Positions 6,510 through 26,207 are shown, counted from the first letter of the stretch. The stretch is 27,895 nucleotides of DNA from Verrucomicrobiia bacterium (GCA_036501665.1 DASXZW010000024.1:1-27895), one strand, 5' to 3'. Program-made: numbers and translations. Notes: a model not told the origin generated them from the letters alone.

Positions 6510-6520
6510 AGACAAAATTT

Positions 6521-10566: not shown

Positions 10567-10620
10567 TCTACCGATAATCTACCGATTTTTTTGGATAATC
10601 TACCGATTTGCAAGAATCGG
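10563..10620. repeat. Three copies of ATAATCTACCGAT plus adjoining inverted repeat CCGATT-TGCAAG-AATCGG
   Basis: Copies at 10563-10575, 10574-10586 and 10595-10607; inverted repeat 10603-10620; between regulator gene and queF. Confidence 0.8.
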
Positions 10621-10809
10621 AGGGCAGTTAATTCACGGGCAATCGAGGGGTACAGGTGCAGGTGGACTAAGGCACAACCTGGCGTGATCAGTTCGGTCTG
10701 GGCTTCGTTTGTCCGGTTTTATGTGCCGTTTCGCAACCGAAGCTTATTTGAATTTCAACCAAATTTGATTCCATCTGGAACGCCGAGGTGTCACAATGGA
10801 GCGGCAAAG

Positions 10810-11274
10810 ATGAAACGCAATCGCAACCGCAAATACGCAGCTCTGACGCTCCTGGGAAACTCCCAGGCAGCGTTTCCCAAGTCCCCTCAGAAGGCAACGC
10901 TTGAAGTGTTTGCGAATACCCACCCACAGCGCGATTACTCAATCCGCATTGACTGCCCTGACTTCACGTCGCTCTGCCCCGTGACCTGCCAACCCGATTT
11001 CGCCGAGATCGTTGTTGATTATATTCCCGATGCCCGTTGCATCGAGACGAAATCACTCAAGCTTTATTTGGCTTCGTATCGCAACGTGCATTCGTTCAAC
11101 GAAGCGGTAATCAATCGCATTCTCGACGATTTGGTTCGATCCTGCCAACCGCGCCGAATGCGAATCGAGGGTCACTTCGCCGCCAGAGGCGGACTTGCCC
11201 TCACCGTGATCGCGGCATATCCGCAAAGCGAAATTGACGCCGGTCGTCCCGTCCGAAAAGGAGGTAAAATATGA
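10810..11274 (+). CDS. queF: NADPH-dependent 7-cyano-7-deazaguanine (preQ0) reductase QueF
   Basis: YAALTLLGN, CPDFTSLCPVTCQPDF (catalytic Cys and Asp), VDYIPDARCIETKSLKLYLASYRN, ARGGLALTV; start at ATG 10810. Confidence 0.88.
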   Translation: MKRNRNRKYAALTLLGNSQAAFPKSPQKATLEVFANTHPQRDYSIRIDCPDFTSLCPVTCQPDFAEIVVDYIPDARCIETKSLKLYLASYRNVHSFNEAVINRILDDLVRSCQPRRMRIEGHFAARGGLALTVIAAYPQSEIDAGRPVRKGGKI

Positions 11275-11975
11275 AAACAAAAGTTGTCGTACTCGTCAGC
11301 GGCGGAATGGATTCCGTTTCCGCCCTCTACGAAGCGCATCAGCAATACATTGTCACCGCCGCGCTCAGTTTTGACTACGGCTCAAAGCACAACCACAAAG
11401 AGATTCCATTTGCCGCGTGGCATTGTCAGAAACTCGGTATTCCTCACCACGCCATCTCTCTTGATTTTGTCGGCCAACTTTTCAAGTCTGACCTCTTGAA
11501 GTCCGGCGGCGCGATTCCAGACGGTCACTACGAAGAGCAAAGCATGAAGCAAACTGTCGTGCCCTTCCGTAACGGCATTATGCTCTCAATTGCCGGAGGC
11601 TTCGCTGAGTCCATAGAGGCGAACGGGTTGGTCATTGCTGCTCACTCAGGGGACCACGCCATTTATCCCGACTGCCGAGAGGATTTCATGAAGTCGATGG
11701 CAGATGCGCTTCGACTTGGCACGTACGCCGCCGTCGAAATCCTGCGCCCATTCATTCACCGGACAAAGGCTCAGATTGCCCAGCGCGGACACGACCTCGG
11801 TGTCGATTTCTCAAAAACCTGGTCATGCTATAAAGGGGGTGACATCCACTGCGGCACATGCGGCACATGCGTTGAACGCCGTGAAGCGTTCATGCTCACT
11901 GGACTTCCCGACCCGACAATTTACGCTGAAACCTCAACTCTGCCCCCGAAGCCGGCGGCAGCCATCCACACCTGA
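11271..11975 (+). CDS. queC: 7-cyano-7-deazaguanine synthase QueC
   Basis: VVVLVSGGMDSVSALYEA PP-loop; SMKQTVVPFRNGIMLSIA; YPDCREDFM; CYKGGDIHCGTCGTCVERREAF zinc motif. Confidence 0.93.
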   Translation: MKTKVVVLVSGGMDSVSALYEAHQQYIVTAALSFDYGSKHNHKEIPFAAWHCQKLGIPHHAISLDFVGQLFKSDLLKSGGAIPDGHYEEQSMKQTVVPFRNGIMLSIAGGFAESIEANGLVIAAHSGDHAIYPDCREDFMKSMADALRLGTYAAVEILRPFIHRTKAQIAQRGHDLGVDFSKTWSCYKGGDIHCGTCGTCVERREAFMLTGLPDPTIYAETSTLPPKPAAAIHT

Positions 11976-11976
11976 A

Positions 11977-12669
11977 ATGCTCATCTCGGAGATTTTTTAC
12001 TCCCTTCAGGGCGAAGGCGAACTCACTGGTATCCCCTCGGTATTCGTCCGCACTTCGGGCTGTAACCTCCGTTGCAATTGGTGCGACACAATGTACGCCT
12101 CCTGGGAACCCGAGGGGACTCAAATGTCGATGGATGAAATCCTCCTCAAGGTGGACTCATTCCCGGCTCAACATTGCGTACTCACCGGAGGCGAGCCAAT
12201 GGTTGCCAAAGAAATCCACGCTCTGGCAACAGCACTTAAAGAGCGAGGTAAGCACATTACCATCGAAACCGCGACGACCGTTCCGCCCAAAAGCATCGCC
12301 TGTGATCTCGCGTCGCTCAGTCCTAAACTCAGCAACTCCACGCCGGACCAACGGTTGCCCGACGCTTGGCGACGAAAACACGATAAATTGCGCTGGCAGC
12401 CCCTTGTCATTCAACAATGGATCGACCATTACCCTTATCAATTAAAATTTGTCATAACGTCGGCAGCCGACCTCAATGAAATTGATTTGCTTTTGAATGA
12501 GGTGAACCGAACAATTCCGCCTATGAAAATCTTGCTAATGCCCGAAGGGACATCAGCAGAGACCATTCGAGGGCGAAACGAAACCCTGGTTGACCTCTGC
12601 AAGCGATATGGCTATCGCTACTGCGACCGTCTCCACGTCCAGCTTTTTGGACACACGCGAGGAACATGA
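11977..12669 (+). CDS. queE: 7-carboxy-7-deazaguanine synthase QueE (radical SAM)
   Basis: MLISEIFYSLQGEGELTGIPSVFVRTSGCNLRCNWCDTMYA; VLTGGEPM; start 11977 just after the queC stop. Confidence 0.93.
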   Translation: MLISEIFYSLQGEGELTGIPSVFVRTSGCNLRCNWCDTMYASWEPEGTQMSMDEILLKVDSFPAQHCVLTGGEPMVAKEIHALATALKERGKHITIETATTVPPKSIACDLASLSPKLSNSTPDQRLPDAWRRKHDKLRWQPLVIQQWIDHYPYQLKFVITSAADLNEIDLLLNEVNRTIPPMKILLMPEGTSAETIRGRNETLVDLCKRYGYRYCDRLHVQLFGHTRGT

Positions 12670-13148
12670 TGCCATATCGTATTTGCAAAACTTTTGAGAT
12701 TGAAAATGGGCACATGCTCTCCAAACATCCTGACCTATGCAAATTTCCCCACGGTCACAGCCGCAAAGTCGAAATCGTTCTTGAGGCGGATTCATTGGAC
12801 GGCAATGAAATGGTCTGCGATTTCAAGGCCGTGACTGAGAGCCTAAACGAGCACCTTAAAACCCTCGACCACGCGATATGTGTCAATACCCAAGACCCGA
12901 ATTTCAAGCAGCTTAAGACCGCCTATGGCGACCGCGTCGTCGCCTTCGAAGCTCTCGACCCCACCACCGAGGTCATCGCCAAAGCGATTTTTGATTTTGC
13001 AAAGTCCAGACTGGTTGCGTACGGCTGCAAACCATCCGCCAAATACCCAATTCGCCCCAACATCCGATTGGTTAAAATCCGTCTCTGGGAAACCAGTAGT
13101 TCTTGGGCGGAGTACTTTGAGGCCAGCGGCACTCCACCACGCGAATGA
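12666..13148 (+). CDS. queD: 6-carboxy-5,6,7,8-tetrahydropterin synthase QueD (6-pyruvoyl-THP synthase family)
   Basis: CKTFEIENGHMLSKHPDLCKFPHGHSRKVEIVLEA; MVCDFKAV; LDHAICVN; PTTEVIAKAIFDF. Confidence 0.9.
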   Translation: MMPYRICKTFEIENGHMLSKHPDLCKFPHGHSRKVEIVLEADSLDGNEMVCDFKAVTESLNEHLKTLDHAICVNTQDPNFKQLKTAYGDRVVAFEALDPTTEVIAKAIFDFAKSRLVAYGCKPSAKYPIRPNIRLVKIRLWETSSSWAEYFEASGTPPRE

Positions 13149-13960
13149 AATACGCCCACACCAAGCCCCTCGCTGACATACAAAAAACCAGGGACCGGCG
13201 TGGTGTTAAAATCGACAAAGTTGGCGTCTGCGATCTGTCGTTTCCGATCACGGTTCTGGATCGCCAGAACCAGCGCCAGCAGACTGTTGCGACGGTTTCC
13301 ATGTCGGTGAGCCTGCCCCACCATTTCAAAGGCACCCACATGAGCCGATTCCTCGAAGTGCTCTGCCGACACCAGGGCGAAGTGACAATGCGAACGCTGC
13401 CTGCAATTCTTCACGACTTGAAGGATCGCCTCGAATCCGAAGCCGCCCACATCGAAGTTGATTTTGCCTATTTTCTCACCCGCAGAGCCCCGGTCAGTGG
13501 TTCGGAAGCACCAATGGATTACCGTTGCACGTTCATCGGCGAATCAAATGGCTTAAAAGACGATTTTCTTCTCCGCGTCCGTGTCCCTGTGACAACCCTA
13601 TGCCCATGTTCAAAAGAGATCAGCGATTACGGCGCGCATAACCAACGCGGTCTTGTCACTCTCACCGTCCGCCCTGAACGCAAGAATGGCCTCTGGGAAC
13701 TCATCTGGATCGAGGAACTCATCCTCATCGCCGAAAAATCCGCCTCGGCCCCTGTCTATCCTCTGCTCAAACGCCCGGACGAGCGCCACGTCACTATGCA
13801 GGCCTTCGACAATCCAGTCTTCGTCGAGGACGTTGTCCGCAACGCTGCCCGCATCCTGCAAAAGGACAGGCGCATAGCTTGGTTTGAGGTTCGAGCCGTC
13901 AATCAGGAGAGCATCCACAACCATTCCGCTTTTGCCGTGGTGGAGTCCAAAAGTGCGTGA
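13145..13960 (+). CDS. folE2: GTP cyclohydrolase IB FolE2
   Basis: 271 aa; VSMSVSLPHHFKGTHMSRF; CPCSKEISDYGAHNQRG; FVEDVVRNAARIL. Confidence 0.9.
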   Translation: MKYAHTKPLADIQKTRDRRGVKIDKVGVCDLSFPITVLDRQNQRQQTVATVSMSVSLPHHFKGTHMSRFLEVLCRHQGEVTMRTLPAILHDLKDRLESEAAHIEVDFAYFLTRRAPVSGSEAPMDYRCTFIGESNGLKDDFLLRVRVPVTTLCPCSKEISDYGAHNQRGLVTLTVRPERKNGLWELIWIEELILIAEKSASAPVYPLLKRPDERHVTMQAFDNPVFVEDVVRNAARILQKDRRIAWFEVRAVNQESIHNHSAFAVVESKSA

Positions 13961-14032
13961 ACGACCCCATGTCCCTCTGCCACCAGCCTGCCGCTCCCAG
14001 TCCTTGAGCTGCACCTTCCTAAATTCGACTCC

Positions 14033-14175
14033 GCTGATTTCTGCCGATTTCTGTTGAAATCTGGCTGGTAGGTCTGGAATCCTCTGCTCCAGAGTATGCT
14101 CCGAGCGGATTTGATACGCCAGAGCTTGCCAAACGTGGGAATCGGTTCCTCGGACGCGTTGGATCGGCCGAGGAA
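14033..14175. promoter_or_regulatory. Repeat-rich noncoding segment upstream of the ParB-like gene
   Basis: Near-tandem 10-mers GCTGATTTCT/GCCGATTTCT/GTTGAAATCT (14033-14062), GATTTC-TGTT-GAAATC (14046-14061), TTCCTCGG-14 nt-CCGAGGAA (14146-14175). Confidence 0.35.
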
Positions 14176-14216
14176 AGAAGCGATTTCGCTCAACAAACAT
14201 ATTAAATAGAGGTCCC

Positions 14217-15713
14217 ATGAGACCCAGCGACAAAACATATTTCACGCACCTTCCCACGGGCAAAATTAGGGCGAACCCCTTCAACCCTCGAAAAACCTTC
14301 GACCAAGAGAGCCTAGATGAACTGGCTGCGAGCCTTGCAACTCACGGAGTTTTGCAGCCTCTCATCGTTTACGAAGACGAAACCTTTTTCGTCCTCATCT
14401 GCGGCGAACGCCGCCTGAGAGCCGCCCGTCAAGCCGGTCTGCCAGAAGTCCCAGCCATCGTTCATCCCATTCCCCCGGAAAACCCGCAGATGCTCTCGAT
14501 GATGCTCATCGAAAATCTGCAACGGAAGGAAGTCGATGTGGTGAATGAGTCTGCGGCGATTCGCCTATTGATAGAGGAGCACAACTGGTCCGTGGCCAGG
14601 GTGTCCAGAAGCTTGGGCGCCGGGGCAGCCTACGTCCGAAAACGGTATCTCCTTACTAAATTCAGTGACGTCCTCGTAGCCTTCACGAACAACACGATTT
14701 CATATTCTGAGGCCATCGAACTTGCATCGATTGAGGATGAGACCGTGCGAAAGTGGTTTTTCAGGCGTATCGAATCCGGAGAGCTTGCCGATTTGAAGAA
14801 ACTTGCCACAGCCGTGTCCCGCGATAAGCAGATCCACAACCTTTTGGGGAAAGGAACCTTCCTCAAACAGGCCCTTGATCGGTCCGCCGTCGAGTTTCAA
14901 GTTGATGGCCTTCCGTACTGCGATCCAAAATGTCCACACTACTTTCGAATTAGCTGGGACGAAAAGCAGCAGTACAAGATTCCGCACAGGAAGCCGGGTT
15001 GGGCAGAATTCTGTACAGACAAATGCGGGTCGTGCTACACGCAAAAGGTTAATGCAAAACAAACGAAACTGTCTGCATTGCGCTCCTTGAAGGCCCAAAG
15101 GCCAATCGCCGATGACGACTTTTCTTCGATGATGTGGCTTAATTACGAGGGGAAGTCCTGCCGAACCTGCCCGTGGATGGTGGAGACGACCGCCCTTGAG
15201 GAGGCTGGCCTAACCCCCCCCCCGAAAGCCCACGCCGTTTGCTCTTGCCCCTCCCCTGAATGCTACGATAAACGGACGCACGTTCTCAACAAGCGTGCGT
15301 CCAGACTTGATTTGCAAAAACAGCAATCCGACGATCTCAAACGTAAAATCCTCTTGAAAGAACTGAAAACGCCGTCCAACAAATTGAGTCAGAATCCCCG
15401 TCCCCAACTTACCAAACGGGAGTGTGCCTTCATCCTACTTCAGACCATTTCGCTCCTTGGAGGTCACGCACGTATACGTGACTTCGCGGAACGCCACGGC
15501 TGGGCAGATAAAATGCCCGCCCAGACCTACGCACAAGTGAAATTTGTACGGAATAAGATTCTCGATGAAATGTCCGAGGCAGACCTCTACGAAGCCCTGC
15601 TCAATGAAGCATGCCTCTCCGCAGCTTATACCACCGAGCCCTTTGTCCCGCTCCGGTTTAGGAGGGATGTTCAAAGCGAAGTCCCGGTGCAAACGAAGGA
15701 AGTTGATGAGTAG
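14217..15713 (+). CDS. ParB/Srx-like domain protein with Cys-rich C-terminal half; probable DpdB-like partner of DpdA
   Basis: 498 aa; IRANPFNPRKTFDQESLDELAASLATHGVLQPLIV, ICGERRLRAARQAGLPEVPAIV, LIENLQRKEVDVVNESAAI; Cys motifs CDPKC, CTDKCGSC, CRTC, CSCPSPEC. Confidence 0.8.
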   Translation: MRPSDKTYFTHLPTGKIRANPFNPRKTFDQESLDELAASLATHGVLQPLIVYEDETFFVLICGERRLRAARQAGLPEVPAIVHPIPPENPQMLSMMLIENLQRKEVDVVNESAAIRLLIEEHNWSVARVSRSLGAGAAYVRKRYLLTKFSDVLVAFTNNTISYSEAIELASIEDETVRKWFFRRIESGELADLKKLATAVSRDKQIHNLLGKGTFLKQALDRSAVEFQVDGLPYCDPKCPHYFRISWDEKQQYKIPHRKPGWAEFCTDKCGSCYTQKVNAKQTKLSALRSLKAQRPIADDDFSSMMWLNYEGKSCRTCPWMVETTALEEAGLTPPPKAHAVCSCPSPECYDKRTHVLNKRASRLDLQKQQSDDLKRKILLKELKTPSNKLSQNPRPQLTKRECAFILLQTISLLGGHARIRDFAERHGWADKMPAQTYAQVKFVRNKILDEMSEADLYEALLNEACLSAAYTTEPFVPLRFRRDVQSEVPVQTKEVDE

Positions 15714-17640
15714 GCTGGTCCACACTTACTTTTCGCTCCAGCGCCAAGCACAGTCAGGTGGTAGGCTTGGCACGATCCACTTCGGGAATGGAGGCAAGGT
15801 TCAGACCCCGGCTCTGTTCCCGGCCATTTGCATTATGACCGGCCCCCCCGGTTTTGGCCGTCAGGGCTCGCACTACAAGTACATCAAACGCATTATGTGC
15901 CGCGAGTGGCACCACAATCATTTCCTGACTGAGATCCTCCACTTTGCGGACTATATGGCGACAGCCAAATCATTGAATGCATGGCTGATCAAGCCATTCC
16001 ATCTCTGGATGGATGAAATGATGCGTGGCGGCAATGTGTCCAATCAGGACCAAGGCGATGATTTTGATTACGAACCGGGCCGGGCATACGAAGCCTGTTT
16101 TTTCCTCGACTCAGGCGGGTTTAAACTCCTTTCGAATAGTGATTTCAGCATTCAGAAATTCGGTTATGAAACCAGCCCAAAAAACATTCTCGACCTCCAG
16201 ACCCACATGGGCGGGGATATTATTGCGTCCCTCGACTACCCATTGGCCCCGTTGGATTATGATCATAAGACCCTGGCTCAATTGCAAAACAAGAGCCTCG
16301 ACAACGCCGTCTGGCTCCTTAAACAAATTGCCGACCGAGGTAGCAAAGGGCCGCGCCCTTTAGTTTACTTGGCGGTCCACGGCATAGATTGCGAATCTGC
16401 CCACGACTGCACTGAGCGCCTGCTGCAAAAACTCGACTCAGGAAATTTTCAATATGAGGCATTCGGATTCGCCATCGGCTCACTAGTGCCGCGCCGCAGC
16501 AATCGCGCTCTTGTTGCGAGTATTGTAAAAGGCGTCGTTGATGCAATCCACGATCATCACAACGGTCGTTATATCGAAAAGCCCGTCCATGCTTTCGGCA
16601 TGTCCGGAGACCTCATCCCGACCCTTACAATGCTCGGTGTGGACACCTTCGACACCAATGCCTTTGTCCAAGGTGGCAAAAATCTGCGGTATATCTTGCC
16701 CCCGCGAGGGGCAAACCTCTCCGTTCGTGAGACTAGGTCTATCGACGAACTTTCGTTGGATACCCTCCGCACATGCGGCTGTCGCGCCTGTACCAGATAC
16801 GAAAAACTTCTCAATCCATTTAAGCAACTAGCTCGCATGGAGAGAGACACTCGCCATAAAATTAAGGGGGTTGGCCGTCACCTGATCAAGTCCGAGATCT
16901 ACGCTTTCCTGGCGCTTCACAACCTCGAAACCGAATATCGGGAAATTGAGGCAGTAAAAGCCGAAATTCTGAACAACACTCTGCCAGCCTACGTCCGCTC
17001 TTACGCCGAGCGCGCCAATCACCGTGGAACTCTCATCCGGGCATACGAAGCCGCCACCGGTGAGTTCGTCCCCCGCACGACTGGCAGACGGGTTTCCCTG
17101 GAGCTTACGCGGGAATCTTTTGGCATCTCAGACACGTACCGCCCCCCAGAGGATAAAGAAATCCTGATTTTTCTGCCTTGCACAAAAGATAAACCTTATA
17201 GTAGCGCGCGCTCCCACCAGGCGATTCGCGGGGCGCTCAACAAAGACCCACGCATACACATTGTCACCATCTCTGGCCTCTATGGCCCTGTACCGGAAGA
17301 GTTGGAGCAGGAACCCGAAATCCTCCAATATGACTACGTTCTGTCACCCGAAGCGAAGGAGCAATCGAACGCCATCACGCGACGATTGAGCGAATATCTG
17401 AAGCGGTTCGGCACCCATTACAAGACCATCGTCGCTTACGTCACCACCCGCGCGTACCGTCACGTTGCAAAGCAAGCACTCCGGGCTTATGGACGTGGCG
17501 TGTTATTGCCCACGGCGCCAAAAGAACAAACATCCAAAGAATTTCTCCGATACGAGAATATTCGTGAGCTCCAGACAACTTTGGCACCACACATAGAAAC
17601 CTCAAAATCACTTGATGCATACCAAACCCTGAACACTTAA
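15706..17640 (+). CDS. dpdA: DpdA-like 7-deazaguanine transglycosylase (TGT-fold domain plus ArcS-like C-terminal domain)
   Basis: Starts MSRLVHTYFSL, overlapping the ParB-like gene by 8 nt; FFLDSGGFKLL, YLAVHG, FGFAIGSLVPRR, LTMLGVDTFDT nucleophile region, zinc site CGCRAC...ALHNLE; C-term ILIFLPCTKDKPYSSARSHQAI. Confidence 0.88.
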   Translation: MSRLVHTYFSLQRQAQSGGRLGTIHFGNGGKVQTPALFPAICIMTGPPGFGRQGSHYKYIKRIMCREWHHNHFLTEILHFADYMATAKSLNAWLIKPFHLWMDEMMRGGNVSNQDQGDDFDYEPGRAYEACFFLDSGGFKLLSNSDFSIQKFGYETSPKNILDLQTHMGGDIIASLDYPLAPLDYDHKTLAQLQNKSLDNAVWLLKQIADRGSKGPRPLVYLAVHGIDCESAHDCTERLLQKLDSGNFQYEAFGFAIGSLVPRRSNRALVASIVKGVVDAIHDHHNGRYIEKPVHAFGMSGDLIPTLTMLGVDTFDTNAFVQGGKNLRYILPPRGANLSVRETRSIDELSLDTLRTCGCRACTRYEKLLNPFKQLARMERDTRHKIKGVGRHLIKSEIYAFLALHNLETEYREIEAVKAEILNNTLPAYVRSYAERANHRGTLIRAYEAATGEFVPRTTGRRVSLELTRESFGISDTYRPPEDKEILIFLPCTKDKPYSSARSHQAIRGALNKDPRIHIVTISGLYGPVPEELEQEPEILQYDYVLSPEAKEQSNAITRRLSEYLKRFGTHYKTIVAYVTTRAYRHVAKQALRAYGRGVLLPTAPKEQTSKEFLRYENIRELQTTLAPHIETSKSLDAYQTLNT

Positions 17641-17678
17641 CGCCCAGCGTTTCTCAACGACGAAATAGAGGCTCCAGA

Positions 17679-17713
17679 AGCCCAGTTGCCCGAAAGGGAG
17701 CTGGGCTTTTTTT
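17679..17713 (+). terminator. Rho-independent-type hairpin with T7 tract
   Basis: AGCCCAG TTG CCC GAAA GGG AG CTGGGCT TTTTTT: strong stem with GAAA tetraloop, directly abutting ATG at 17714. Confidence 0.8.
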
Positions 17714-18112
17714 ATGGCAAAAACAATAGCGGATGTTGAAATCGTAGTACAACAGCAAGGCGAACAGGACAGAGTCTTTCGTGCCTCAGTTTCTCTGGAA
17801 GCAAAGCGTTCCTACACAGTTTCCATTCTGGGGCCAGAGGCCAATCCGGATATAACATCGCTGGACTCGGACTCTCAAGCCCCCGCAACCGCGCTCCTCG
17901 AGCAAAAACTGAAGCAGCTTGTCGATCAGTTCGACCCCACCATCGCCCTCGTCAAGATAACCAAGGACACACTCAACGTTTTGCCAAAAGTTACTTACCG
18001 CTGTGGTAACTGGCGCTGTCAAACCAAGCTGTTTGAATCCTGGGGCCTCGCGCCGGGCATTCGCATACTTTGCAAGAAGTGCAAGACCCTGCGAATTCCC
18101 AAAGTCGTCTAA
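17714..18112 (+). CDS. Small protein with C-terminal Com-like zinc-ribbon
   Basis: 132 aa; VTYRCGNWRCQTKLFESWGLAPGIRILCKKCKTLRIP (CxxxxC...CxxC). Confidence 0.7.
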   Translation: MAKTIADVEIVVQQQGEQDRVFRASVSLEAKRSYTVSILGPEANPDITSLDSDSQAPATALLEQKLKQLVDQFDPTIALVKITKDTLNVLPKVTYRCGNWRCQTKLFESWGLAPGIRILCKKCKTLRIPKVV

Positions 18113-18124
18113 GGAGGACGCACT

Positions 18125-19327
18125 ATGACCACACCTGACGAAACAGATGACTTCCTCGACAAATACCTGCCCACACAGTCCCCTCACGCGAATGAACTGA
18201 AGCGCAGCATCACTCTATGTAATGACGACCCGAAACTCCTTGACTGCATTCTAATCTTAGGCCCCACCGGATGTGGCAAGACGCGCCTAGCGAAAATCAT
18301 CGCTGCACATCGATGCTGGATAAACTTCAAAAAGCAGCATACGATCAAAAGCGAATACATTAAAGCGGAAAATTGGCGGGATCTCGAACTCAAGTGGCTA
18401 CAAGGATTCAACAGTATCCTTAGCGACTTCGGCGAGCCGTTCGAGTCGATTAACATCAGCAATGTGGAAGGTTTGGCGTTTGAGTCCGAACTCTTTGGCC
18501 ACGTTGCAGGGGCCTTTACCGACGCAAAAACAGAAAAGCCCGGATTGCTCGCCAGGCCACTTTTATGCGATGTGCTCATTGATGAGATAGGCAATGCTGA
18601 GATTCCTACACAGCGTAAATTGTTGCAGCTTCTTCAGGATAAAACTTACAGGAAAAAGGGCTGTACGACAAAACTTGACTGTGATGCTCGTTTACTTTTC
18701 GCCACCAACGTCAAGCCTGAGTTGCTCCTTCAGAGTAAAGCTCTCCAGGAGGATTTTTACTACCGCCTGTGCAACGGGATCATCCTTGAGATTCAGCCAC
18801 TCAAGAACAGAACCGAAGAGATTGAAGATATTTCCACATCTGTGCTTGACTTTTTAAAGTCAAAACTGCCTCCCCTTGATCCTCGTCTTTCCTGCTATTT
18901 ATCGCCGGATGATCTCACATTTGCGAAAACCTATACCTGGCCAGGTAACATAAGACAGTTGGAAGCGGCTCTCCGCAACTGGCTTGCTAATGTCAAATGG
19001 ACTCCCGCGGTCACACTACAGCAAATGGTCATTGCGAATGCCGAGAAGTACACCGCTTTGGTCCCTCCAGAGAAGATTTCTCTCAATTCAATTTTGGATT
19101 CATACGTGACCGCCCGTCTCAATTCAGCCGCAGCCGGGGAGAAAATACAATCCCTGACAGAGGAGGTAGCCCTCGTCAAAAGAACCGCAGAAACAATTTT
19201 CGCATCTCGCGTGTCGTCAGCCGGTCACACGAAGTCTGAAGCGACTCTTGGCAAAATATGCGCCAAGAACTCCACAAAGCATCTCAAACATATAAGACAA
19301 TGGATTGCTCGAAGAAAACCGAATTAG
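18125..19327 (+). CDS. AAA+ ATPase of the sigma-54 activator (bEBP) type, with no receiver domain and an altered GAFTGA loop
   Basis: 400 aa; GPTGCGKTRLAK, VEGLAFESELFGHVAGAFTDAKTEKPG, DVLIDEIGNAEIPTQRKLLQLLQDKTYRKKG, FATN, YYRL, YTWPGNIRQLEAALRNW; AAGGAGG SD. Confidence 0.85.
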   Translation: MTTPDETDDFLDKYLPTQSPHANELKRSITLCNDDPKLLDCILILGPTGCGKTRLAKIIAAHRCWINFKKQHTIKSEYIKAENWRDLELKWLQGFNSILSDFGEPFESINISNVEGLAFESELFGHVAGAFTDAKTEKPGLLARPLLCDVLIDEIGNAEIPTQRKLLQLLQDKTYRKKGCTTKLDCDARLLFATNVKPELLLQSKALQEDFYYRLCNGIILEIQPLKNRTEEIEDISTSVLDFLKSKLPPLDPRLSCYLSPDDLTFAKTYTWPGNIRQLEAALRNWLANVKWTPAVTLQQMVIANAEKYTALVPPEKISLNSILDSYVTARLNSAAAGEKIQSLTEEVALVKRTAETIFASRVSSAGHTKSEATLGKICAKNSTKHLKHIRQWIARRKPN

Positions 19328-19480
19328 TTGCTTATTGCGGCAATCCGATTGCGGATATGAGCAACTGTAGAATCAAAACAGAATGCTCTCATTGCGTCAT
19401 ATAGCACTAACCAACAACATGTTGCACATAAAGCTGCAACGACGGCCTGAATTTGGCATACCACTCGCATCATCATCGCC

Positions 19481-20011
19481 ATGTTGAATGTTGGAATAAC
19501 GATTTGGAATCAACAGCTTCTCAATGATTTCCTGAGGGAGCTTGAGGCGGGCCCCCAATTGTTTGAGCAAGTCGTGCTCATCTCTCCCTTCGTCAATTTG
19601 TCGGCCACTTCCCGCATCGCCACACGTATTCGCCATCTGTCTGTTTCACTATTACGGCGTCGCGTGACACTTGAAATCGTTTCCGACCTCACCCGCGCAC
19701 GAGTCATGTCCTTCGTGAACTACCAGGCAGACGAGCCTCATTGTCCCAGTTTCCTGACCCTTTACCCAAAACTTCATTCCAAATGTGGGTACGCCGTCGC
19801 CAGAAACGGCGCTCATATCGCCTTCGCTGGGTCAGCAAACCTAACGGACGCAGCGCTGTCAAAAAATAAAGAATTGGTAATCGCGGTTAAGACCACACCC
19901 TCCCTCCCTGAGACGCAGAAAGTATTCAATCAAATAAAACAACAGGCAGACGAAATCCTGGCAGAATCCGTTGGCCCTGGCCACATCACGGCAAAAAGAA
20001 AGTGCTACTAA
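19481..20011 (+). CDS. Phospholipase D-like protein, DpdK-like candidate
   Basis: 176 aa; VVLISPFVN, YPKLHSKCGYAVARNGAHIAFAGSANLTDAALSKNKELVIAV (HxK...GSxNLT signature). Confidence 0.7.
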   Translation: MLNVGITIWNQQLLNDFLRELEAGPQLFEQVVLISPFVNLSATSRIATRIRHLSVSLLRRRVTLEIVSDLTRARVMSFVNYQADEPHCPSFLTLYPKLHSKCGYAVARNGAHIAFAGSANLTDAALSKNKELVIAVKTTPSLPETQKVFNQIKQQADEILAESVGPGHITAKRKCY

Positions 20012-20199
20012 AGCTCCTACATGACAATTGCACATCAGCTATGACACATGATAACACACGTTAACAACCGCTCTGCGCTCGCTCAACTTATCGCCATGCT
20101 CCTTTACCGTCGTCTTCCTCGACCTTCGACTGTCGTAGGCTGTACCAATAACCACACACACACTAACAACATCAACACCGGATCGCAATAGACAAACAT

Positions 20200-21336
20200 A
20201 TGAGTACTTTCACAAATTTCTATTTCCTAAAAAACAACCGCGCCAATTTCGAGTTGGACGTTCGGAAAGACGCCAAATTGGTTTTCGGATACACCAAACT
20301 GAAAGACCTTGTGGACTCCATGCTTGGCGACGCCACGATCAGTGGCACGCCCCCTAAGAGTTTCTGGTGGGGTCAGTACGGTTGTGGCAAAACCCATCAC
20401 TTGCATTACACCGAACAAACGATAAATGCAGTGATGCCATTTAGAGTAGTGCGTTTCGATCTCCCAGAAGTAACGAGCAAGAGTCTTTTCAATGATCTAC
20501 AACTGAACCTCGTGACTCGAATCGACTTAGCCTATTTCAGACCACTCCTCATTTCTCGCTACCAGGCTGACCTCACATGGCTGCAACACCTCTCAATTCC
20601 TCCGGACGTAAGGCAAGCCTTTAATACGATAATCAGTAACGAAATGCGAGCCTTAGAAGCGTGGCGGTTTTTGGCCGGCATAAAAACGGACGATCCAGGT
20701 GGCATAGGGGTAACAAAGAAACAACTCACAGAGGGTGAGGAATTTGCCGCCGCAATAGCTACCATCGCAGAGGTGATTCATTTGCAGGAAAACAAGATGT
20801 TGCTTTACCTAATCGATGAAGCTGAGGGGCTCAGCGCCGTCACCAATGCTGATTCACAGAAAAAGTGGGCACATTCTCTCCGCAAATGTCTCGACCTACG
20901 CGTGGGTTTCGTTTTAGCAATCGCTGCTGAAAAACAGCAATACATACCCGAAATCCTCCAGGCCCAAGAGGTCTGGCGACGCGTTGGAGACGACTACATC
21001 GTCGCTCTCCAGGCACTCCGCGTTCCCGAAATTGAAGGCTTTCTTCGTGGGCTTCTTCACGCTTTCATCGACGAACAGAAACTGATCGCCGCCGAGGGTG
21101 CTGGCACGTTCGCTAACTATCCCCTTTACGATAGGAGCACCTTTCCATTTACCCAAGAAGCTCTCACCGGCTATGCCAAGTACCTTGGCCACAATCAACA
21201 AAACTCGAAGCCATCTGAAATCCTAAAAAATCTTCAAAAGATTAGCCATGCGGCGGTTCGCGTTGATAAACGAGTAATCGACAAAGACTTCCTCACTACG
21301 GCAGGACCCGACGGCCAAAGTTGCTTTCACGACTAA
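20200..21336 (+). CDS. P-loop ATPase with YGxGKTH Walker A
   Basis: 378 aa; FWWGQYGCGKTHHLHYTEQ; MLLYLIDEAEGLS Walker B. Confidence 0.8.
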   Translation: MSTFTNFYFLKNNRANFELDVRKDAKLVFGYTKLKDLVDSMLGDATISGTPPKSFWWGQYGCGKTHHLHYTEQTINAVMPFRVVRFDLPEVTSKSLFNDLQLNLVTRIDLAYFRPLLISRYQADLTWLQHLSIPPDVRQAFNTIISNEMRALEAWRFLAGIKTDDPGGIGVTKKQLTEGEEFAAAIATIAEVIHLQENKMLLYLIDEAEGLSAVTNADSQKKWAHSLRKCLDLRVGFVLAIAAEKQQYIPEILQAQEVWRRVGDDYIVALQALRVPEIEGFLRGLLHAFIDEQKLIAAEGAGTFANYPLYDRSTFPFTQEALTGYAKYLGHNQQNSKPSEILKNLQKISHAAVRVDKRVIDKDFLTTAGPDGQSCFHD

Positions 21337-21345
21337 GGACGACTT

Positions 21346-22746
21346 ATGAGTAAATATATTATCAATCCAACGATTCAGGGGGATGTGACGTTAGGTGAAG
21401 GCGACCGCAAGAGCACGATGTTCGTAGGGCGCCTAGCTGAGACTGGGGCGGTGCGAAACGTCTATCAAGACGTGTCTAAAGAGTTCGTCAGTATTATTAT
21501 TGGTCAACGCGGCAGTGGCAAAAGTTTCAGCCTTGGGTCGCAACTTGAAAGCCTATGCACCACAAACCGAGAATCCTCCATAGGGAAGCGGCAGGAGGAT
21601 CGAGGCGTCCTCCTTATTGATCCAAACGCCAATTTCTGGACGAGTGCCATGCCGCTGCGAAATGGTGACCACGCCCGCCTGAAAAGGCAGCATTCCTCCA
21701 TCTCCGGGTGGAAAATCGGCATAGATGATGTAGCCGTCCAGGTATGGACTCCGGCGGGTTGCCGCTCCAGTACCGATCATCTGTCTGTTCAAGAATATTT
21801 CTTTGATACATCCGATTTTCGTTGTGAGGAATGGGCCGAAATCCTGTCGCTTGACACGACTCAGGACCCTCGCGGTATGTTGCTTTCTGATCTTTACTAC
21901 AAACTACGAGTTTCCGGATGGCATGATGGTACTCGTCGAGTTGATCCAGCGTCCAGAGTGGATCTCGCAACTCTTGTCAATTGTTTGGAAAATGATTCCG
22001 ACATCAATACAGGCTCAGCCGGGTATCAAAAGAGCACAATCGCAGCTCTGAAAAAGGAATTGGTCTCCTTATCGCGCCGCCCATTATTCGCAAATGCAGG
22101 CACACCGCTCACGACACTTATCAAGCCAGGAGTATTCAGCATTATGATGCTTCCATATGAACTGGGTCGTGGTTTACGGTCGGTTCTCGCGAGGGTTATC
22201 ATCAGTAAAATGATGAGCCATCGACGGGAAGCGACTAAGTTGCAACAGAGGCTTGACTTCGAAGAGATGCCGGACGCGCACCGGCAGGATTTGCGCTCCA
22301 AAGTCCTGAACCTCATACCCAGGACGGTTTTGGCCATCGACGAGGCCCAAGAGTTGCTTGGAGAAGCTGGGGGAGTCGAGCGCGCTGTACTTGAAGATTA
22401 TTGTCTTCGCGGGCGCGGCTTTGGTCTGTCGATGATCCTCGCCACTCAGCGACCGGAGTCCAGCGCCCTAAGCTCCAAGGTCACCAGCCAAGCTGACACT
22501 TGGTACATTCACAGCCTCGGTTCGCAAGGCAACATATCTACCGTTTATGATAACCTGGTCGCTGCATTTCCAGAGACAGTTTCGGACGGTCGCCAAACGC
22601 TTGATTTCTTCAGCCTTCTCAGGTCCTTGAACACAGGGCAATCGCTCGTGGCCGCAAAATCCATGGAAACCGGTAACGGAGTGCGGCGTGCATTTGTCAT
22701 GGATACTCGCCCGCGTGTCCGAATTCACGGTGGTGATGCCTCATGA
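21346..22746 (+). CDS. HerA/FtsK-like ATPase
   Basis: 466 aa; VSIIIGQRGSGKSFSLGSQLE; GVLLIDPNANFW; TVLAIDEAQELLGEAGG; MILATQRPESS; SD AAGGACGACTT upstream. Confidence 0.8.
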   Translation: MSKYIINPTIQGDVTLGEGDRKSTMFVGRLAETGAVRNVYQDVSKEFVSIIIGQRGSGKSFSLGSQLESLCTTNRESSIGKRQEDRGVLLIDPNANFWTSAMPLRNGDHARLKRQHSSISGWKIGIDDVAVQVWTPAGCRSSTDHLSVQEYFFDTSDFRCEEWAEILSLDTTQDPRGMLLSDLYYKLRVSGWHDGTRRVDPASRVDLATLVNCLENDSDINTGSAGYQKSTIAALKKELVSLSRRPLFANAGTPLTTLIKPGVFSIMMLPYELGRGLRSVLARVIISKMMSHRREATKLQQRLDFEEMPDAHRQDLRSKVLNLIPRTVLAIDEAQELLGEAGGVERAVLEDYCLRGRGFGLSMILATQRPESSALSSKVTSQADTWYIHSLGSQGNISTVYDNLVAAFPETVSDGRQTLDFFSLLRSLNTGQSLVAAKSMETGNGVRRAFVMDTRPRVRIHGGDAS

Positions 22747-24032
22747 CCATTCCACTTATTACATCATACACTGAGTTTCAGCAGCGCCTCGGCTACTGCA
22801 AGCTCCTCCTGGCCGTTTCCAAGCGAGCCGCCTCACAGCCCGAACAGGTGCTCAGACAACTCGATCACATATTTTTCAAGCCTACCGCCGACGGACACGA
22901 CACTTACCTCGGTCAAATCCTTGGGAAGCAGGTCCAAGTCAAAACAGCCCACTCCCACCTCCGTCTCCACAATTCCCTAGCCGAAACGGATAGCACGACG
23001 AGCCTTCGCAGCTTCGGGAACGAAGCAAAAGAGATACTAACGCTCTGCAGGGCGCTCGGATTGGTTGATGACCGCGTTGTTATCCTCGAAAACGCTATGC
23101 CTCTCATTCGTCTCATCCCCGAGGCTTCCTGGGATCTTGTTCGCCAAGGCTTACGGCCTGACGAGTACAACCCCTTGATCCTCGATCATGGCACCAGCAA
23201 TGTGAGCGAAAAAACCTACTTCCTTATTCGTCTATTAAGCGAGGACATTGCGTTTACATTGCTTCCTCTGGCTCTTCGCTCCAAAACTCGGACTGCTTTC
23301 CATCGCTACATTGATTGGGATGGGCTAAAAACCGACGATTTTCCCTCTAACAATATGTTAACGGTGGTCTATGAAGACCTAATATGCAGCGCCAAACCAA
23401 GACTCTTCGGTGAGGTCCGCAATGCCAAGAATTTAGACAACTATTTCCTTGGTGATCCTCGCAAACGGCGTACTCATCCCGGCATGCGGCAGTACGCGCG
23501 CTTCAGACATCAGGCTACACCGCGACTTGCGTTTCTGAAGGAACTGGGTATAATTGCGTCCCAACCTTTGCCGCCACCGGATTCTCATCTCTCGAAGCAA
23601 TACTCATATCTTCTTACGCCAACAACAGAAGCATACGTCGAATACATTCGGAAGACGTTACTGGCGGACGGGCTGGATAGCGAGGAGTTTGTGCGGAATC
23701 ACGCCTTTAAAATTGCAAGTATAATATACCATAGGGTCACTCGGCGACCCGTAGATCAGGAGGAAGTATTCCGTTACTTTTTGCGCGCGTATGTGCGACT
23801 AAAGCGCGACATGGGGAATACCCCCTCCGGTAGCATTTGTATGTTAGGATGCCTTCTCGCACAGGACGATGGCCTTTTAATAGAAATAAAGGAAATGCAC
23901 CAAGTCGGGCGGGACTACGCCCGTAAGTACTCTGAGTTTCTCCGCTATTCGGGTGGCAGCATTCAACTTGGAGATTATCTTATATCAGTTGATCATAGAT
24001 TGCTGCAAAACCTTGGTATCCAGAACCCATAA
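22743..24032 (+). CDS. Uncharacterised protein of the ATPase module
   Basis: 429 aa; ATGA overlap with the HerA-like gene; no recognised motif. Confidence 0.75.
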   Translation: MTIPLITSYTEFQQRLGYCKLLLAVSKRAASQPEQVLRQLDHIFFKPTADGHDTYLGQILGKQVQVKTAHSHLRLHNSLAETDSTTSLRSFGNEAKEILTLCRALGLVDDRVVILENAMPLIRLIPEASWDLVRQGLRPDEYNPLILDHGTSNVSEKTYFLIRLLSEDIAFTLLPLALRSKTRTAFHRYIDWDGLKTDDFPSNNMLTVVYEDLICSAKPRLFGEVRNAKNLDNYFLGDPRKRRTHPGMRQYARFRHQATPRLAFLKELGIIASQPLPPPDSHLSKQYSYLLTPTTEAYVEYIRKTLLADGLDSEEFVRNHAFKIASIIYHRVTRRPVDQEEVFRYFLRAYVRLKRDMGNTPSGSICMLGCLLAQDDGLLIEIKEMHQVGRDYARKYSEFLRYSGGSIQLGDYLISVDHRLLQNLGIQNP

Positions 24033-24045
24033 TCGAAGAACAATT

Positions 24046-24903
24046 ATGCCATCAAACAAGCCAAAGCCAAACGATATCGCCGAAAGCCCCCTCGGTCCGC
24101 TTGCCTTGAAAGTTTTTGACCGCTCAAAAGTTTGGTCGCTTTTAGCAAAGCAGGTGGAGGACTGCTTTGTTTTCGCCAACGCCACTCCGAACGCCCAACT
24201 CGATCCATTTAAGGTCGCACTACTCCTGCCGCAACTCCAATTACACTTCAGAACTACTAATGACCCTCCCGACGCAGATCTGTCCGCACTACAGGCATGG
24301 ACAAATCAAGAGTGCCGACGTGCAATTGCTGAGTTCGAGGTTGCTTTGCAAAAATTGTGCGCGGCAGAAAAACTCCAAGTAGAAGGCCGGTTCCCTCACT
24401 TCATTCTTGCAGGATTCCTCGAAATTATAGTTCAAGATAAACAACCCGTTTGTAAAATCGGTGGGTCCAGCTTAAATACAGTGAACCTTTCAATCGTTGC
24501 GCCTGTAATCCTTCAAAGGATCAGGGAGGACACCGCCCGCAAGTTCGACCCCAAGTTATTTCTTGATCAACTATACAAAGCTTATCAACGAACCGCTCTC
24601 AATGGGCGAATTCCGGGAGGCGAGCCCGTGCTTGCGAAGTTGATTCTTCCAGAGATCGCCTTTATTAAACAATCGCTCGCTTTCTTGAAGTCGCCGTCCA
24701 AGGCTGCCTTCGTCGATTACACCTTGGAACACTTCGCTCGTGATTTGGCCCTCATTCTGAAAGACGGCAACGTTTGCACCTCTAACGGCAAGCGTTTACA
24801 CCCAACACCAGTGTCCAATTCGTCTGACGGCATTCCAGTTATGATCGACGGCGCTTATCGATACATAGGACGTCTCACCTTCTTGGAGGAAACCCAGCGA
24901 TGA
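24046..24903 (+). CDS. Uncharacterised protein of the ATPase module
   Basis: 285 aa starting MPSNKPKPNDIAESPLGPLALKVFDRSKVW; ATGA overlap with next gene. Confidence 0.7.
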   Translation: MPSNKPKPNDIAESPLGPLALKVFDRSKVWSLLAKQVEDCFVFANATPNAQLDPFKVALLLPQLQLHFRTTNDPPDADLSALQAWTNQECRRAIAEFEVALQKLCAAEKLQVEGRFPHFILAGFLEIIVQDKQPVCKIGGSSLNTVNLSIVAPVILQRIREDTARKFDPKLFLDQLYKAYQRTALNGRIPGGEPVLAKLILPEIAFIKQSLAFLKSPSKAAFVDYTLEHFARDLALILKDGNVCTSNGKRLHPTPVSNSSDGIPVMIDGAYRYIGRLTFLEETQR

Positions 24904-26207
24904 GCACACTGGATCAACCGTTAGCCAAACGGCTCATTTCGCGCCTGAAGGCAGGTACGGCGCCCATTGACTGTGTGGACCAATTGAATGTTGGAAATGA
25001 AGCTTGGTACAGTGCTGCTGTTCAATACTTTGAGGACTTAGCTCAGGATGGCGACGCCCTCGTCCGCTTCGTGCGCGGCCACTATGGTGATGGCAAAACA
25101 CACTTTTTAGGGATGCTCGGTGCTCTCGCATTCAAAAACGGTTGGAGCGTCAGCTACGTTACCGCCGAGAGAACCAAACTTCACAAATTCGAGGTCGTCT
25201 ATTCCGAAATTATAAAGGCCATAAATCTTCCGCCAGGTGTTTCAATTGTCCCCTGGCTTACTGAAATCAGACCGAGGGGGGCGATGTCCCTGTTGGGAGC
25301 CTTTTTCTCCAAGATATACATCGACGTGCATGGTGCTGCCAATGAACATGGCATCAATCGAATGTCGGTACTTCACGAGGTTAAACAACGTGTGGCCAAG
25401 TTTAGTGCGGCGAACGGATTCCACGACTTAGTGAGCACAGCGCTCATGATTTTCACGAAAGCAGCACTGGCACAAGAGGCTCAAGGAATGTCTGACATGG
25501 TTTCATGGTTTCAGGGTGATGATGTTAAATTTAGAGATAAAGGAATAAATAGGCGGATCGACCAACGTCTTGCAAGAGATGTGCTTCGCTGTCTCACGCA
25601 AGTATCCCAGCACGTAGGGATTCGTGGCACCTTGGTCCTTCTTGACGAGGCGGAACTTATATTGGCACAAACGAAGTCTGTACGCACTAAATCCTATTCG
25701 GTGCTTCGTGACCTCCTCGATAATGCCGATCCGCAAGCAGGAATGCGCGCATCCATTATATATATTGCTGCGACACCAGAAATGTTCACGGCTAAAGAAG
25801 GCTTTGCTGAGTACGAAGCGCTGCGCTCGCGCCTAATGCCGGCATTATCCTTTACATCCAAGAGATTCATCGACTATCGCGACGTGGTAGTTGATCTCAC
25901 GCGAACCCCGCTTCCTGCGGACCTCCTGTTCCAGCTTGCAAAGAAAGTACGTGGAATCCATTCTGTTGCCAGACAGTGGGACGCTTCGGCTCACATTTCG
26001 GACGATCTGCTACAGATCATTGTCACGCGGATAGACAACGGGTCGTTTCCCGTCTCGAAGCCGCGCATGGTTACTTCCGTGATTACGCAGCTTCTGGAGT
26101 CCGCTGAGCAGAACAGGACCGAGGACCCCACTTTGGCAATTGAAGCGACGGTGTCGGATGCGGCACAAACACTCTCCATGCGGCCCGATTCCGAGAAATG
26201 GGATTGA
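24900..26207 (+). CDS. BrxC/BrxD (DUF2791)-like P-loop ATPase
   Basis: 435 aa; FVRGHYGDGKTHFLGMLGALAFKNGWSVSYVTAE; TLVLLDEAELI; VIYIAATPEMF-like sensor segment (IIYIAATPEMF). Confidence 0.7.
   Translation: MSTLDQPLAKRLISRLKAGTAPIDCVDQLNVGNEAWYSAAVQYFEDLAQDGDALVRFVRGHYGDGKTHFLGMLGALAFKNGWSVSYVTAERTKLHKFEVVYSEIIKAINLPPGVSIVPWLTEIRPRGAMSLLGAFFSKIYIDVHGAANEHGINRMSVLHEVKQRVAKFSAANGFHDLVSTALMIFTKAALAQEAQGMSDMVSWFQGDDVKFRDKGINRRIDQRLARDVLRCLTQVSQHVGIRGTLVLLDEAELILAQTKSVRTKSYSVLRDLLDNADPQAGMRASIIYIAATPEMFTAKEGFAEYEALRSRLMPALSFTSKRFIDYRDVVVDLTRTPLPADLLFQLAKKVRGIHSVARQWDASAHISDDLLQIIVTRIDNGSFPVSKPRMVTSVITQLLESAEQNRTEDPTLAIEATVSDAAQTLSMRPDSEKWD

Follow-up and report, generated by a model that had tools for sequence, protein, structure and literature searches.

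The subject of this analysis is a gene in a 27,895-nucleotide (nt) stretch of DNA from a Verrucomicrobiia bacterium (GCA_036501665.1, DASXZW010000024.1:1-27895; "the window" refers to this whole stretch), which encodes a 644-aa protein fusing a tRNA-guanine transglycosylase (TGT) domain to a DUF5591 domain of the type found in archaeosine-synthase (ArcS) proteins. We propose, with a probability of roughly 0.6, that this TGT-DUF5591 protein is a bifunctional enzyme writing a 7-deazaguanine mark in DNA and that, in an island on a mobile element which would work as a Dpd-like restriction-modification system, it supplies the modification arm. The protein has two conserved catalytic-type domains, its gene is translationally coupled to a ParB-type gene, a dedicated precursor pathway is encoded upstream, and loci of this kind are linked to restriction-type modules. 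We infer a DNA substrate, a partner role for the ParB-type protein, a restriction function and a product, which would be dG+, dADG, dPreQ0 or dPreQ1.

The open reading frame (ORF) starts at ATG 15706, which is preceded by GAAGGAAG. The longest possible ORF opens farther upstream, at TTG 15544, and the ATG was taken as the start because homologues of 58-97% identity start at ATG and are 641-652 aa in length. The stop codon of the upstream ParB-like gene (TAG, 15711-15713) lies within the first codons of the TGT-DUF5591 gene, and the two therefore overlap by 8 nt, just as a preliminary description of this DNA had stated. That description had also named a set of TGT hallmarks (DSGGF, AIGSL, GVDTFD, CxCxxC and a distal His) and a C-terminal sequence, all of which were located in the ORF (Table 1). 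Both domains were recovered by Pfam, with TGT (PF01702) at aa 131-436 (E = 2.9e-17; 63 bits versus a cutoff of 26.3) and DUF5591 (PF17884) at aa 474-614 (E = 1e-19; 71 bits versus a cutoff of 26), so the ArcS-type C-terminal domain that had been claimed is indeed present. An AlphaFold2 (AF2) model built on 110 homologues had a mean pLDDT of 91.5. Membership in the TGT superfamily is supported by PF01702 and TIGR00449, both of which scored above their cutoffs, and by Foldseek, in which the top matches were all TGTs.

Both domains appear to be under catalytic-type constraint because each contains a series of invariant positions in the 110-sequence alignment. In the TGT domain, D135, S136, G137, G138, D177, H225, G226, G258, S259, V261, H295, G298, D313, D316, C357 and H405 are invariant (110/110), while C359 and C362 are conserved in 109 of 110 sequences. 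The catalytic and zinc residues are thus retained in 109-110 of the 110 sequences, in agreement with the intact catalytic core proposed earlier. D135, D177, D316, C357, C359, C362 and H405 all align with ArcTGT residues. By homology to TGT and DpdA (PMC10164549), D135 would act as the general acid/base and D316 as the nucleophile, D177 and H225 would recognize the base, and C357, C359, C362 and H405 would form the zinc site; these assignments rest on low-identity alignments. D316 probably corresponds to Zm D280, Ph D249 and DpdA D256. Canonical ArcS reportedly lost key arcTGT catalytic residues (Phillips et al. 2010), whereas the TGT-DUF5591 family keeps all of them invariant. In the DUF5591 domain, C492, K496, P497, Y498, S523, G524, Y526, G527 and P530 are invariant (110/110), as is the SGxYGxxP segment, which reads SGLYGPVP in this protein. 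The published ArcS motif is PC-X3-KPY-X2-S-X2-H (PMC10516641, PMC5699537). Its counterpart in PCTKDKPYSSARSH keeps the P, C, K, P, Y and H, with Ala at the Ser position. The same Ser-to-Ala change is found in the closest relatives; across the alignment the Ser is kept in 98 of 110 sequences and the His in 101 of 110, the latter being replaced in one Dpd-linked subclade (P0026-29).

Among 5.8 billion proteins searched, 269 relatives were identified, a number that places the two-domain architecture far beyond chance, and the TGT + DUF5591 pair was found in all of the 120 listed. Full-length relatives are ~600-675 aa long, and the most similar is 97% identical. The family is nonetheless rare, as 76 of 1.84 billion 50%-identity cluster representatives matched at E ≤ 1e-30. 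Members occur in Poribacteria, Cyanobacteria, Chloroflexota, haloarchaea (often on plasmids) and a Verrucomicrobiae metagenome-assembled genome, the last being the closest genomic relative (76% identity). The whole protein had no tblastn match in phage genomes at 1e-5, the DUF5591 part alone gave marginal matches to STSV1, STSV2 and PhiF1, no relatives were found among the IMG/VR viral contigs searched, and 11 kb of the window had no megablast match among plasmids. A search seeded with the PhiF1 DUF5591 protein returned only stand-alone DUF5591 proteins of ~200 aa. There are also TGT-only proteins (~340-390 aa; P0248, P0250, P0254) and stand-alone DUF5591 proteins (~200-226 aa; P0265, P0267, P0271, P0273), each 34-42% identical to the matching half of the fusion, and their sequences suggest that they may be split forms of the same enzyme.

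Placement of the protein was ranked on hidden Markov model, profile and fold scores. Among the NCBIfam models used for TGT placement, only tgt_general (TIGR00449) was passed, with 59.6 bits versus a cutoff of 47.6, whereas arcTGT (TIGR00432) reached 64.6 bits versus 350 and ArcS (NF040592) 88 bits versus 440, the latter aligned over model positions 142-424. A profile of the family searched against the PDB matched ArcTGT (1iq8) at 2.8e-34, in an alignment beginning at ArcTGT residue 2, as well as bacterial and eukaryotic TGTs (~3e-12) and the DUF5591 protein AF0587 (2q07; 4e-12). Salmonella DpdA (7ui4) was absent at E ≤ 10, although this structure is in the library. Foldseek of the AF2 model against the PDB also ranked 1iq8 first (9e-21). 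The PADLOC DpdA models matched neither this protein nor a relative of 48% identity, although two of them (PDLC02807/8) do match control TGT-only proteins from Nostoc and haloarchaeal plasmids, and hhalign against the canonical DpdA of E. cloacae pPOL9A gave a probability of 21%. Membership in the bacterial DpdA family is ruled out on these grounds and, as the partner is not DpdB either (see below), the label "DpdA-like" of the preliminary description is not supported as a statement of family membership. Membership in the ArcTGT or ArcS families was rejected as well: both equivalog cutoffs were failed, Pfam detected no PUA or C2 tRNA-binding domain, and the modelled chain ends after DUF5591. 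Thus, ArcTGT (TgtA) is the closest sequence and structure relative of the N-terminal domain and ArcS (TgtA2) shares its C1 core with the PCxxxKPY motif, but the protein differs from both. Placement within the tRNA-TGT/ArcS clades had been named in advance as a result that would speak against a DNA-targeted enzyme, and the outcome is mixed, as the sequence does lean toward ArcTGT/ArcS and yet fails their equivalog models and is without their tRNA-binding domains.

These matches bear directly upon the possibility that the protein is a tRNA enzyme, i.e. a bacterial or mobile-element-borne ArcTGT/ArcS-like protein that inserts preQ0 into tRNA on the way to archaeosine or preQ0-Lys. The best sequence and structure matches are as this explanation would have them, relatives are named tRNA-guanine transglycosylase in databases, and relatives in Poribacteria occupy housekeeping-like neighbourhoods. 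We nonetheless consider it very improbable, given the failed cutoffs and missing tRNA-binding domains, the coupled DNA-binding ParB protein, the co-located preQ pathway, the DpdE-H genes that follow the pair in a relative, and the conjugative-type element with no tRNA gene nearby. Moreover, DNA-inserting enzymes, unlike tRNA-acting ones, generally co-localise with preQ0 genes (10.64898/2026.04.15.718813). DNA rather than tRNA is therefore most likely the target, a conclusion that rests on gene context. The "active DNA-targeted enzyme" of the preliminary description fares accordingly: the mobile element, the dedicated preQ pathway, the ParB partner and the DpdE-H genes of the 48%-identity relative all speak for it, and its DNA target is deduced from this setting.

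Features of the predicted active site point in more than one direction. The invariant H225 aligns with the Gln of the ArcTGT "IQG" and with the His of the DpdA "AHGW", both in low-confidence alignments; TGTs have Gln and DpdA has His181 at the base-recognition position (PMC10164549), so the fusion would resemble DpdA in carrying a His there. In contrast, the AF2 model contains four TGT-like N-terminal strands (aa 8-40), whereas DpdA is without the N-terminal beta-strand lid of TGTs (PMC10164549), and the zinc motif is CxCxxC-x42-H as opposed to a spacing of x22 in DpdA. The SLVP segment aligns with the VVP segment of ArcTGT and not with the segment of bacterial TGTs that carries Glu235. The SLVP segment may thus weakly favour preQ0 as the inserted base, judging by the alignment.

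The gene directly upstream encodes a 498-aa protein recognized by the ParB_N, Noc and parB_part models. It contains GERRLRA (a GxxRxxA nucleoside triphosphate motif), ENLQR, a helix-turn-helix (HTH) and a conserved Cys-rich C-terminal domain. In seven independent loci (the window, L003, L082, L084, L091, L092 and L097), the gene immediately preceding TGT-DUF5591 is of the ParB type; the two overlap by 1-38 nt or are 5 nt apart, at TGT identities down to 35%. Identification of this partner as DpdB, a DndB-like ParB-fold ATPase, was rejected: it is of the GERRLRA/ENLQR ParB/Noc type, has no DGQ(Q/H)R motif, shows no significant similarity to E. cloacae DpdB and has no PADLOC DpdB match. It was also rejected as a mere plasmid partition ParB, as the ParA of the window is 7 kb away and the ParB-TGT coupling is kept in a chromosomal locus; the related loci, moreover, yielded no homologue of ParA. 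The first ~90 residues (the ParB N-domain) have a weak PADLOC match to a type II methyltransferase model. Residues 200-498 contain conserved Cys clusters (LPYCDxxCP..., CxxC and CSCP..C) and belong to no Pfam family. To judge from these clusters, the C-terminal 300 residues may form a domain peculiar to this system that binds zinc and either recognizes DNA or docks the TGT protein. A ParB-dependent phage thymidine dioxygenase (PMC13229309) provides a precedent for ParB-type licensing of DNA-modifying enzymes.

Upstream of this pair, the window encodes a full preQ1 pathway in the order queF, queC, queE, queD and folE2, followed by a 256-nt gap, the ParB-like gene and the TGT-DUF5591 gene. The queF-queC, queE-queD and queD-folE2 junctions are 4-nt overlaps. 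QueF has its catalytic Cys in FTSLCPVTCQPDF and the NADPH motif ETKSLKLY. Its ORF, listed at 10591-11274, opens at a TTG 73 codons before the likely start, Met74 (~10810), and is separated by a 244-nt gap from the HATPase_c_4 gene upstream. Rfam at its gathering threshold found nothing in the window, and hence no preQ1 riboswitch, the window contains no tRNA genes, and a promoter/terminator scan performed no better than on shuffled sequences.

We envisage that the co-transcribed FolE2-QueD-QueE-QueC(-QueF) enzymes would supply free preQ0 and/or preQ1. The ParB/Noc-type NTPase would then bind DNA and license or target the exchange, much as the DpdB ATPase does for DpdA (PMC10164549). The TGT domain would swap guanine for the deazaguanine by the double displacement of TGT and DpdA, with D316 as the covalent nucleophile, D135 as the acid/base, and D177 and H225 reading the base. 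Subsequently, DUF5591 would act on the nitrile of the DNA-bound preQ0 via Cys492, Lys496 and Tyr498, most likely yielding an amidine (dG+-type) as in phage nt-1 or, less likely, the amide dADG, in which case it would fill the slot of DpdC. Finally, the mark would shield self DNA from the downstream nuclease/ATPase module.

The closest parallels to this scheme are viral. In the Sulfolobus virus STSV2, the DpdA STSV2_15 and the stand-alone DUF5591 protein ArcS2 (STSV2_16) are encoded by adjacent overlapping genes, whose order is that of the domains in the fusion, and the pair looks like a split version of it. By hhalign, the family profile matched STSV2_15 with 91% probability (E = 1e-6) and STSV2_16 with 96% (E = 1.5e-9). 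Among predicted viral structures, Foldseek likened the N-terminal domain to phage DpdA-type proteins, including R9TGF0 (DpdA2) of Vibrio phage nt-1 (4.5e-8), and the C-terminal domain to the nt-1 DUF5591 protein R9TEI9 (1.5e-4). DpdA2 of nt-1 alone produces dPreQ0 in E. coli plasmid DNA, and dG+ when ArcS2 is added; this ArcS2 is active despite a slightly degenerate motif (PMC10516641). The viral pairs thus resemble the TGT-DUF5591 protein in combining a TGT-fold transglycosylase with a DUF5591 core. However, viral ArcS2 is a stand-alone DUF5591 protein beside DpdA, whereas the window has one 644-aa chain in a cellular or mobile-element setting with a ParB-type partner. The homology itself is supported; in sequence, the fusion and the viral proteins share very little identity. 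ArcS of T. kodakarensis accepts the bare preQ0 nucleotide as its minimal substrate (PMC11298593), and DUF5591 chemistry is therefore independent of tRNA architecture.

It is possible, if unlikely, that the protein is a DNA transglycosylase in which DUF5591 is non-catalytic, with a structural, dimerisation or DNA-binding role, and that the mark is dPreQ1 or dPreQ0. A genuine QueF is encoded within the operon, phage Dp-1, which has QueF and DpdA, carries dPreQ1 (PMC6884629), and the departures from the ArcS motif described above would also fit. Arguing for a catalytic DUF5591 instead are the invariance of C492, K496, P497, Y498 and SGxYGxxP, the activity of nt-1 ArcS2 with its own degenerate motif, the absence of queF at several loci of the same clade, and the ArcTGT-like SLVP segment, which suggests preQ0 recognition from the alignment only. 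L082, L091 and L097 lack queF, so the clade can do without it and its role may be accessory; alternatively, the mark may differ between islands. A bolder version of the proposal, which we consider quite unlikely, is a DNA base new to cellular genomes. After insertion of preQ0, and with the base still bound by the same chain, DUF5591 would attach an amine other than ammonia to the nitrile, so that an N-substituted amidine would result. The mark would be spread by a ParB clamp of the CTP type, which would load at a site and slide, and it would be read by a PLD/HerA/BrxD-type restriction module of a new kind. The amine could be lysine, as with ArcS, or preQ1 from the QueF of the operon.

With regard to the island as a whole, it rides a conjugative or mobilisable element, as indicated by the TrwC relaxase, ParA, type IV coupling protein and HATPase_c_4 genes upstream (Table 1). 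Downstream of the TGT-DUF5591 gene is a co-conserved module of nine genes that runs off the end of the window. These encode a protein of 132 aa that has CxxC pairs near its C-terminus; an AAA+ protein of the sigma54/RtcR type that lacks a CARF domain; a 176-aa phospholipase D (PLD)-family nuclease with a single HKD motif, whose best PADLOC match is ZacB; an AAA protein and a HerA/mad8-like ATPase; two proteins without a known family; and a BrxD-like protein and a BrxC/D-like ATPase with a zinc finger. The module is a candidate for a new restriction/effector arm. PADLOC assembled no system from it and matched none of its proteins to DpdD-K, and identification of the PLD protein as DpdK was rejected for want of similarity. 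L003, L082 and L084 each contain the entire block, que genes through BrxC/D-like gene, with its gene order unchanged, and their TGT-DUF5591 proteins are 76%, 58% and 67% identical, respectively. L003 is a 2.1-Mb chromosomal Verrucomicrobiae contig, from which it follows that the defence block moves between backbones; L082 has no queF and L084 has one. L083 and L085 are second contigs on which the two proteins of L082 and L084, respectively, are found again, and there too the module follows the modification genes in this order.

An element of this kind might also use the modification as an anti-restriction device, hypermodifying itself, in the manner of phages, so as to evade the restriction systems of recipients, with the downstream genes being unrelated defence cargo. 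The relaxase, coupling protein and ParA in the same window would suit such a role, phage deazaguanines do protect DNA from restriction (PMC6884629), and the ParB N-domain has its weak type II methyltransferase match, but we hold this to be improbable, as the order of the modification genes and of the nine genes after them is conserved across L003, L082 and L084, including the chromosomal contig, and the module that accompanies the pair in L091 is the Dpd restriction set.

The latter locus (48% identity; metagenomic, with the protein on at least 24 contigs) is particularly informative. At 5606-19010 it carries queC-D-E, folE2, the ParB-like gene and the TGT-DUF5591 gene, then DpdE (3.7e-135), DpdF (1.3e-156), DpdG and DpdH (1.3e-64), and DpdA, DpdB and DpdC were not found on the 19 kb of contig read. 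By its gene content, L091 appears to be a Dpd system with a swapped modification arm, in which the pair occupies the place of DpdA/DpdB/DpdC in front of DpdE-H. Overall, the likeness to the Dpd systems of Salmonella Montevideo and E. cloacae pPOL9A extends to a TGT-fold enzyme coupled to a ParB-superfamily NTPase, a nitrile-modifying activity and preQ0 genes. The two differ in that the GERRLRA partner of the window precedes the TGT gene whereas DpdB, with its DGQ(Q/H)R motif, follows; in that DUF5591 stands in place of the DUF328/DUF6884-type DpdC; and in that the effector module of the window is not DpdD-K. In Foldseek against BFVD, the DUF5591 part of the model (aa 474-630) resembled DUF6884 and YaaA proteins (E = 6e-3 to 5e-2, TM 0.44-0.61), and the E. 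cloacae gene upstream of dpdA (L096 3465-4316; presumably dpdC) has weak DUF6884/YaaA Pfam matches. DUF5591 and DpdC-type proteins may therefore be distant relatives with a shared nitrile-handling fold.

A second comparison is with BREX-related capture (BRC), with which the island shares a TGT homologue proposed to mark DNA along with HerA-type and BrxC/D-type ATPases. BRC systems comprise TGT/GNAT, HerA and BrxC-like ATPases; their defining components are PglZ, DUF6079, DUF4007 and a STAND NTPase, and they reportedly have no DpdB-like partner (PMC12839542). The window, in contrast, has a ParB-type partner and DUF5591 and none of the BRC-defining components was detected in it; in the absence of PglZ, DUF4007 and DUF6079, assignment of the island to BRC was rejected.

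The remaining relatives are found in a variety of settings. Two distant members (35-36% identity) retain the ParB-type gene: in L092 (2017-5909), which is likewise particularly informative, a queuosine-precursor transporter of the Vut_1/YhhQ type comes after the pair in place of que genes, which looks like precursor salvage instead of synthesis, and in L097 (2052-7945) it adjoins large unknown proteins and an AIPR abortive-infection gene. Approximately 22 haloarchaeal loci (L001, L011, L014, L025, L027 and ~17 others) contain an operon of TGT-DUF5591, a DUF6884 protein weakly resembling YaaA/DpdC, a TGT-only paralogue (~415 aa) and a GHKL (HATPase_c_3) ATPase (~520 aa), as in L027 at 9962-15184; in many cases queC, queD and queE are neighbours of the operon, and it is frequently plasmid-borne. 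The two TGT paralogues might form a heterodimer or insert different bases, and the part of ParB or DpdB may be taken by the GHKL ATPase. A bacterial relative, L093, likewise has a GHKL ATPase and que genes. In Cyanobacteria and Chloroflexota, a DEAD helicase of 1,300-1,400 aa is encoded directly downstream of TGT-DUF5591. Separately, the Haloarcula sinaiiensis plasmid pHsi139 (L087, 686-12872) carries the gene of a TGT-only protein with a weak DpdA match. Encoded with it are QueE, QueD, a protein with an EVE domain, a nuclease of the PD-(D/E)XK type and a protein with a BREX ATP-binding domain, so that a TGT and a BrxC/D-type ATPase occur together on this archaeal plasmid as well, in a different combination.

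Several observations weigh against the proposed DNA-modifying, Dpd-like role. By sequence, the TGT domain is nearest to the tRNA-acting ArcTGT, with canonical DpdA barely detectable. This protein has Ala for the Ser of the ArcS motif, the Dpd-linked subclade no longer has the His, and no component of the downstream module matched DpdD-K. A genuine QueF nitrile reductase would convert preQ0 to preQ1, leaving no nitrile for DUF5591. Lastly, in ~30 Poribacteria genomes the neighbours look like housekeeping genes and neither que nor defence genes are linked within 10 kb, and thus the family as a whole is not demonstrably defence-linked.

Table 1. Features of the window and of the TGT-DUF5591 protein
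Feature	Position (nt)	Residues (aa)	Strand	Basis or remarks
TGT-DUF5591 fusion protein	15706..17640	644 in total	+	ORF, Pfam, homologues, AF2 model
N-terminal TGT-type TIM-barrel domain	15706..17055	1-450	+	Pfam, NCBIfam, ArcTGT 1iq8 alignment, 110-sequence invariance
C-terminal DUF5591 domain (ArcS C1 core / ArcS2-type)	17125..17547	474-614	+	Pfam, PDB AF0587 2q07, hhalign, Foldseek
DSGGF	16108-16122	135-139		TGT hallmark
AIGSL	16471-16485	256-260		TGT hallmark
GVDTFD	16636-16653	311-316		TGT hallmark
CGCRAC	16774-16791	357-362		TGT hallmark (CxCxxC)
LALHNL	16909-16926			contains the distal His405
ILIFLPCTKDKPYSSARSHQAIRGAL	17161-17238	486-511		C-terminal sequence
ParB/Noc-type partner	14217..15713	498 in total	+	ParB_N, Noc and parB_part models; adjoins TGT-DUF5591 in related loci
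QueF (preQ1 synthase)	10810..11274		+	TIGR03139, 160 bits versus cutoff 86.9
QueC (preQ0 synthase)	11271..11975		+	Pfam QueC 4.6e-61
QueE (radical S-adenosylmethionine 7-carboxy-7-deazaguanine synthase)	11977..12669		+	start inferred at the ATG right after the queC stop
QueD (PTPS family)	12666..13148		+	Pfam
FolE2 (GTP cyclohydrolase IB)	13145..13960		+	Pfam GCHY-1 8e-92
Nine-gene co-conserved module	17714..27895		+	runs off window end; same order in L003, L082, L084
HNH-like protein	543-1334			mobile-element backbone
HTH_17 protein	2458-2937		-	mobile-element backbone
TrwC relaxase/helicase	2989-5808		-	mobile-element backbone
ParA	6458-7267			mobile-element backbone
TrwB/TraD-type (type IV) coupling protein (T4CP)	7617-9107			mobile-element backbone
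HATPase_c_4 protein	9343-10566			mobile-element backbone

7-deazaguanine marks in DNA are already known from the bacterial DpdABC systems and from phages. In the literature on DUF5591, PF17884 and DpdA/ArcS combinations we found phage ArcS2 work only; neither an enzyme with TGT and DUF5591 fused nor a Dpd-like system with a ParB/Noc-type partner was described in the texts found. The locus examined here suggests a third, independently assembled route, in which an ArcTGT-lineage transglycosylase fused to an ArcS core works with a ParB/Noc-type partner, and in which the modification pair can precede either the classical DpdE-H genes or a different ATPase/nuclease module. If the proposal is correct, archaeosine-type (dG+) or related bases would be predicted in bacterial and haloarchaeal chromosomes and plasmids, beyond phage DNA, and the protein would represent a single-chain enzyme for site-specific deazaguanine writing, as well as a further case of ParB-fold NTPases licensing DNA-modifying enzymes. 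It would also mean that both the annotation "tRNA-guanine transglycosylase" and genome mining based upon DpdA overlook the TGT-DUF5591 class.

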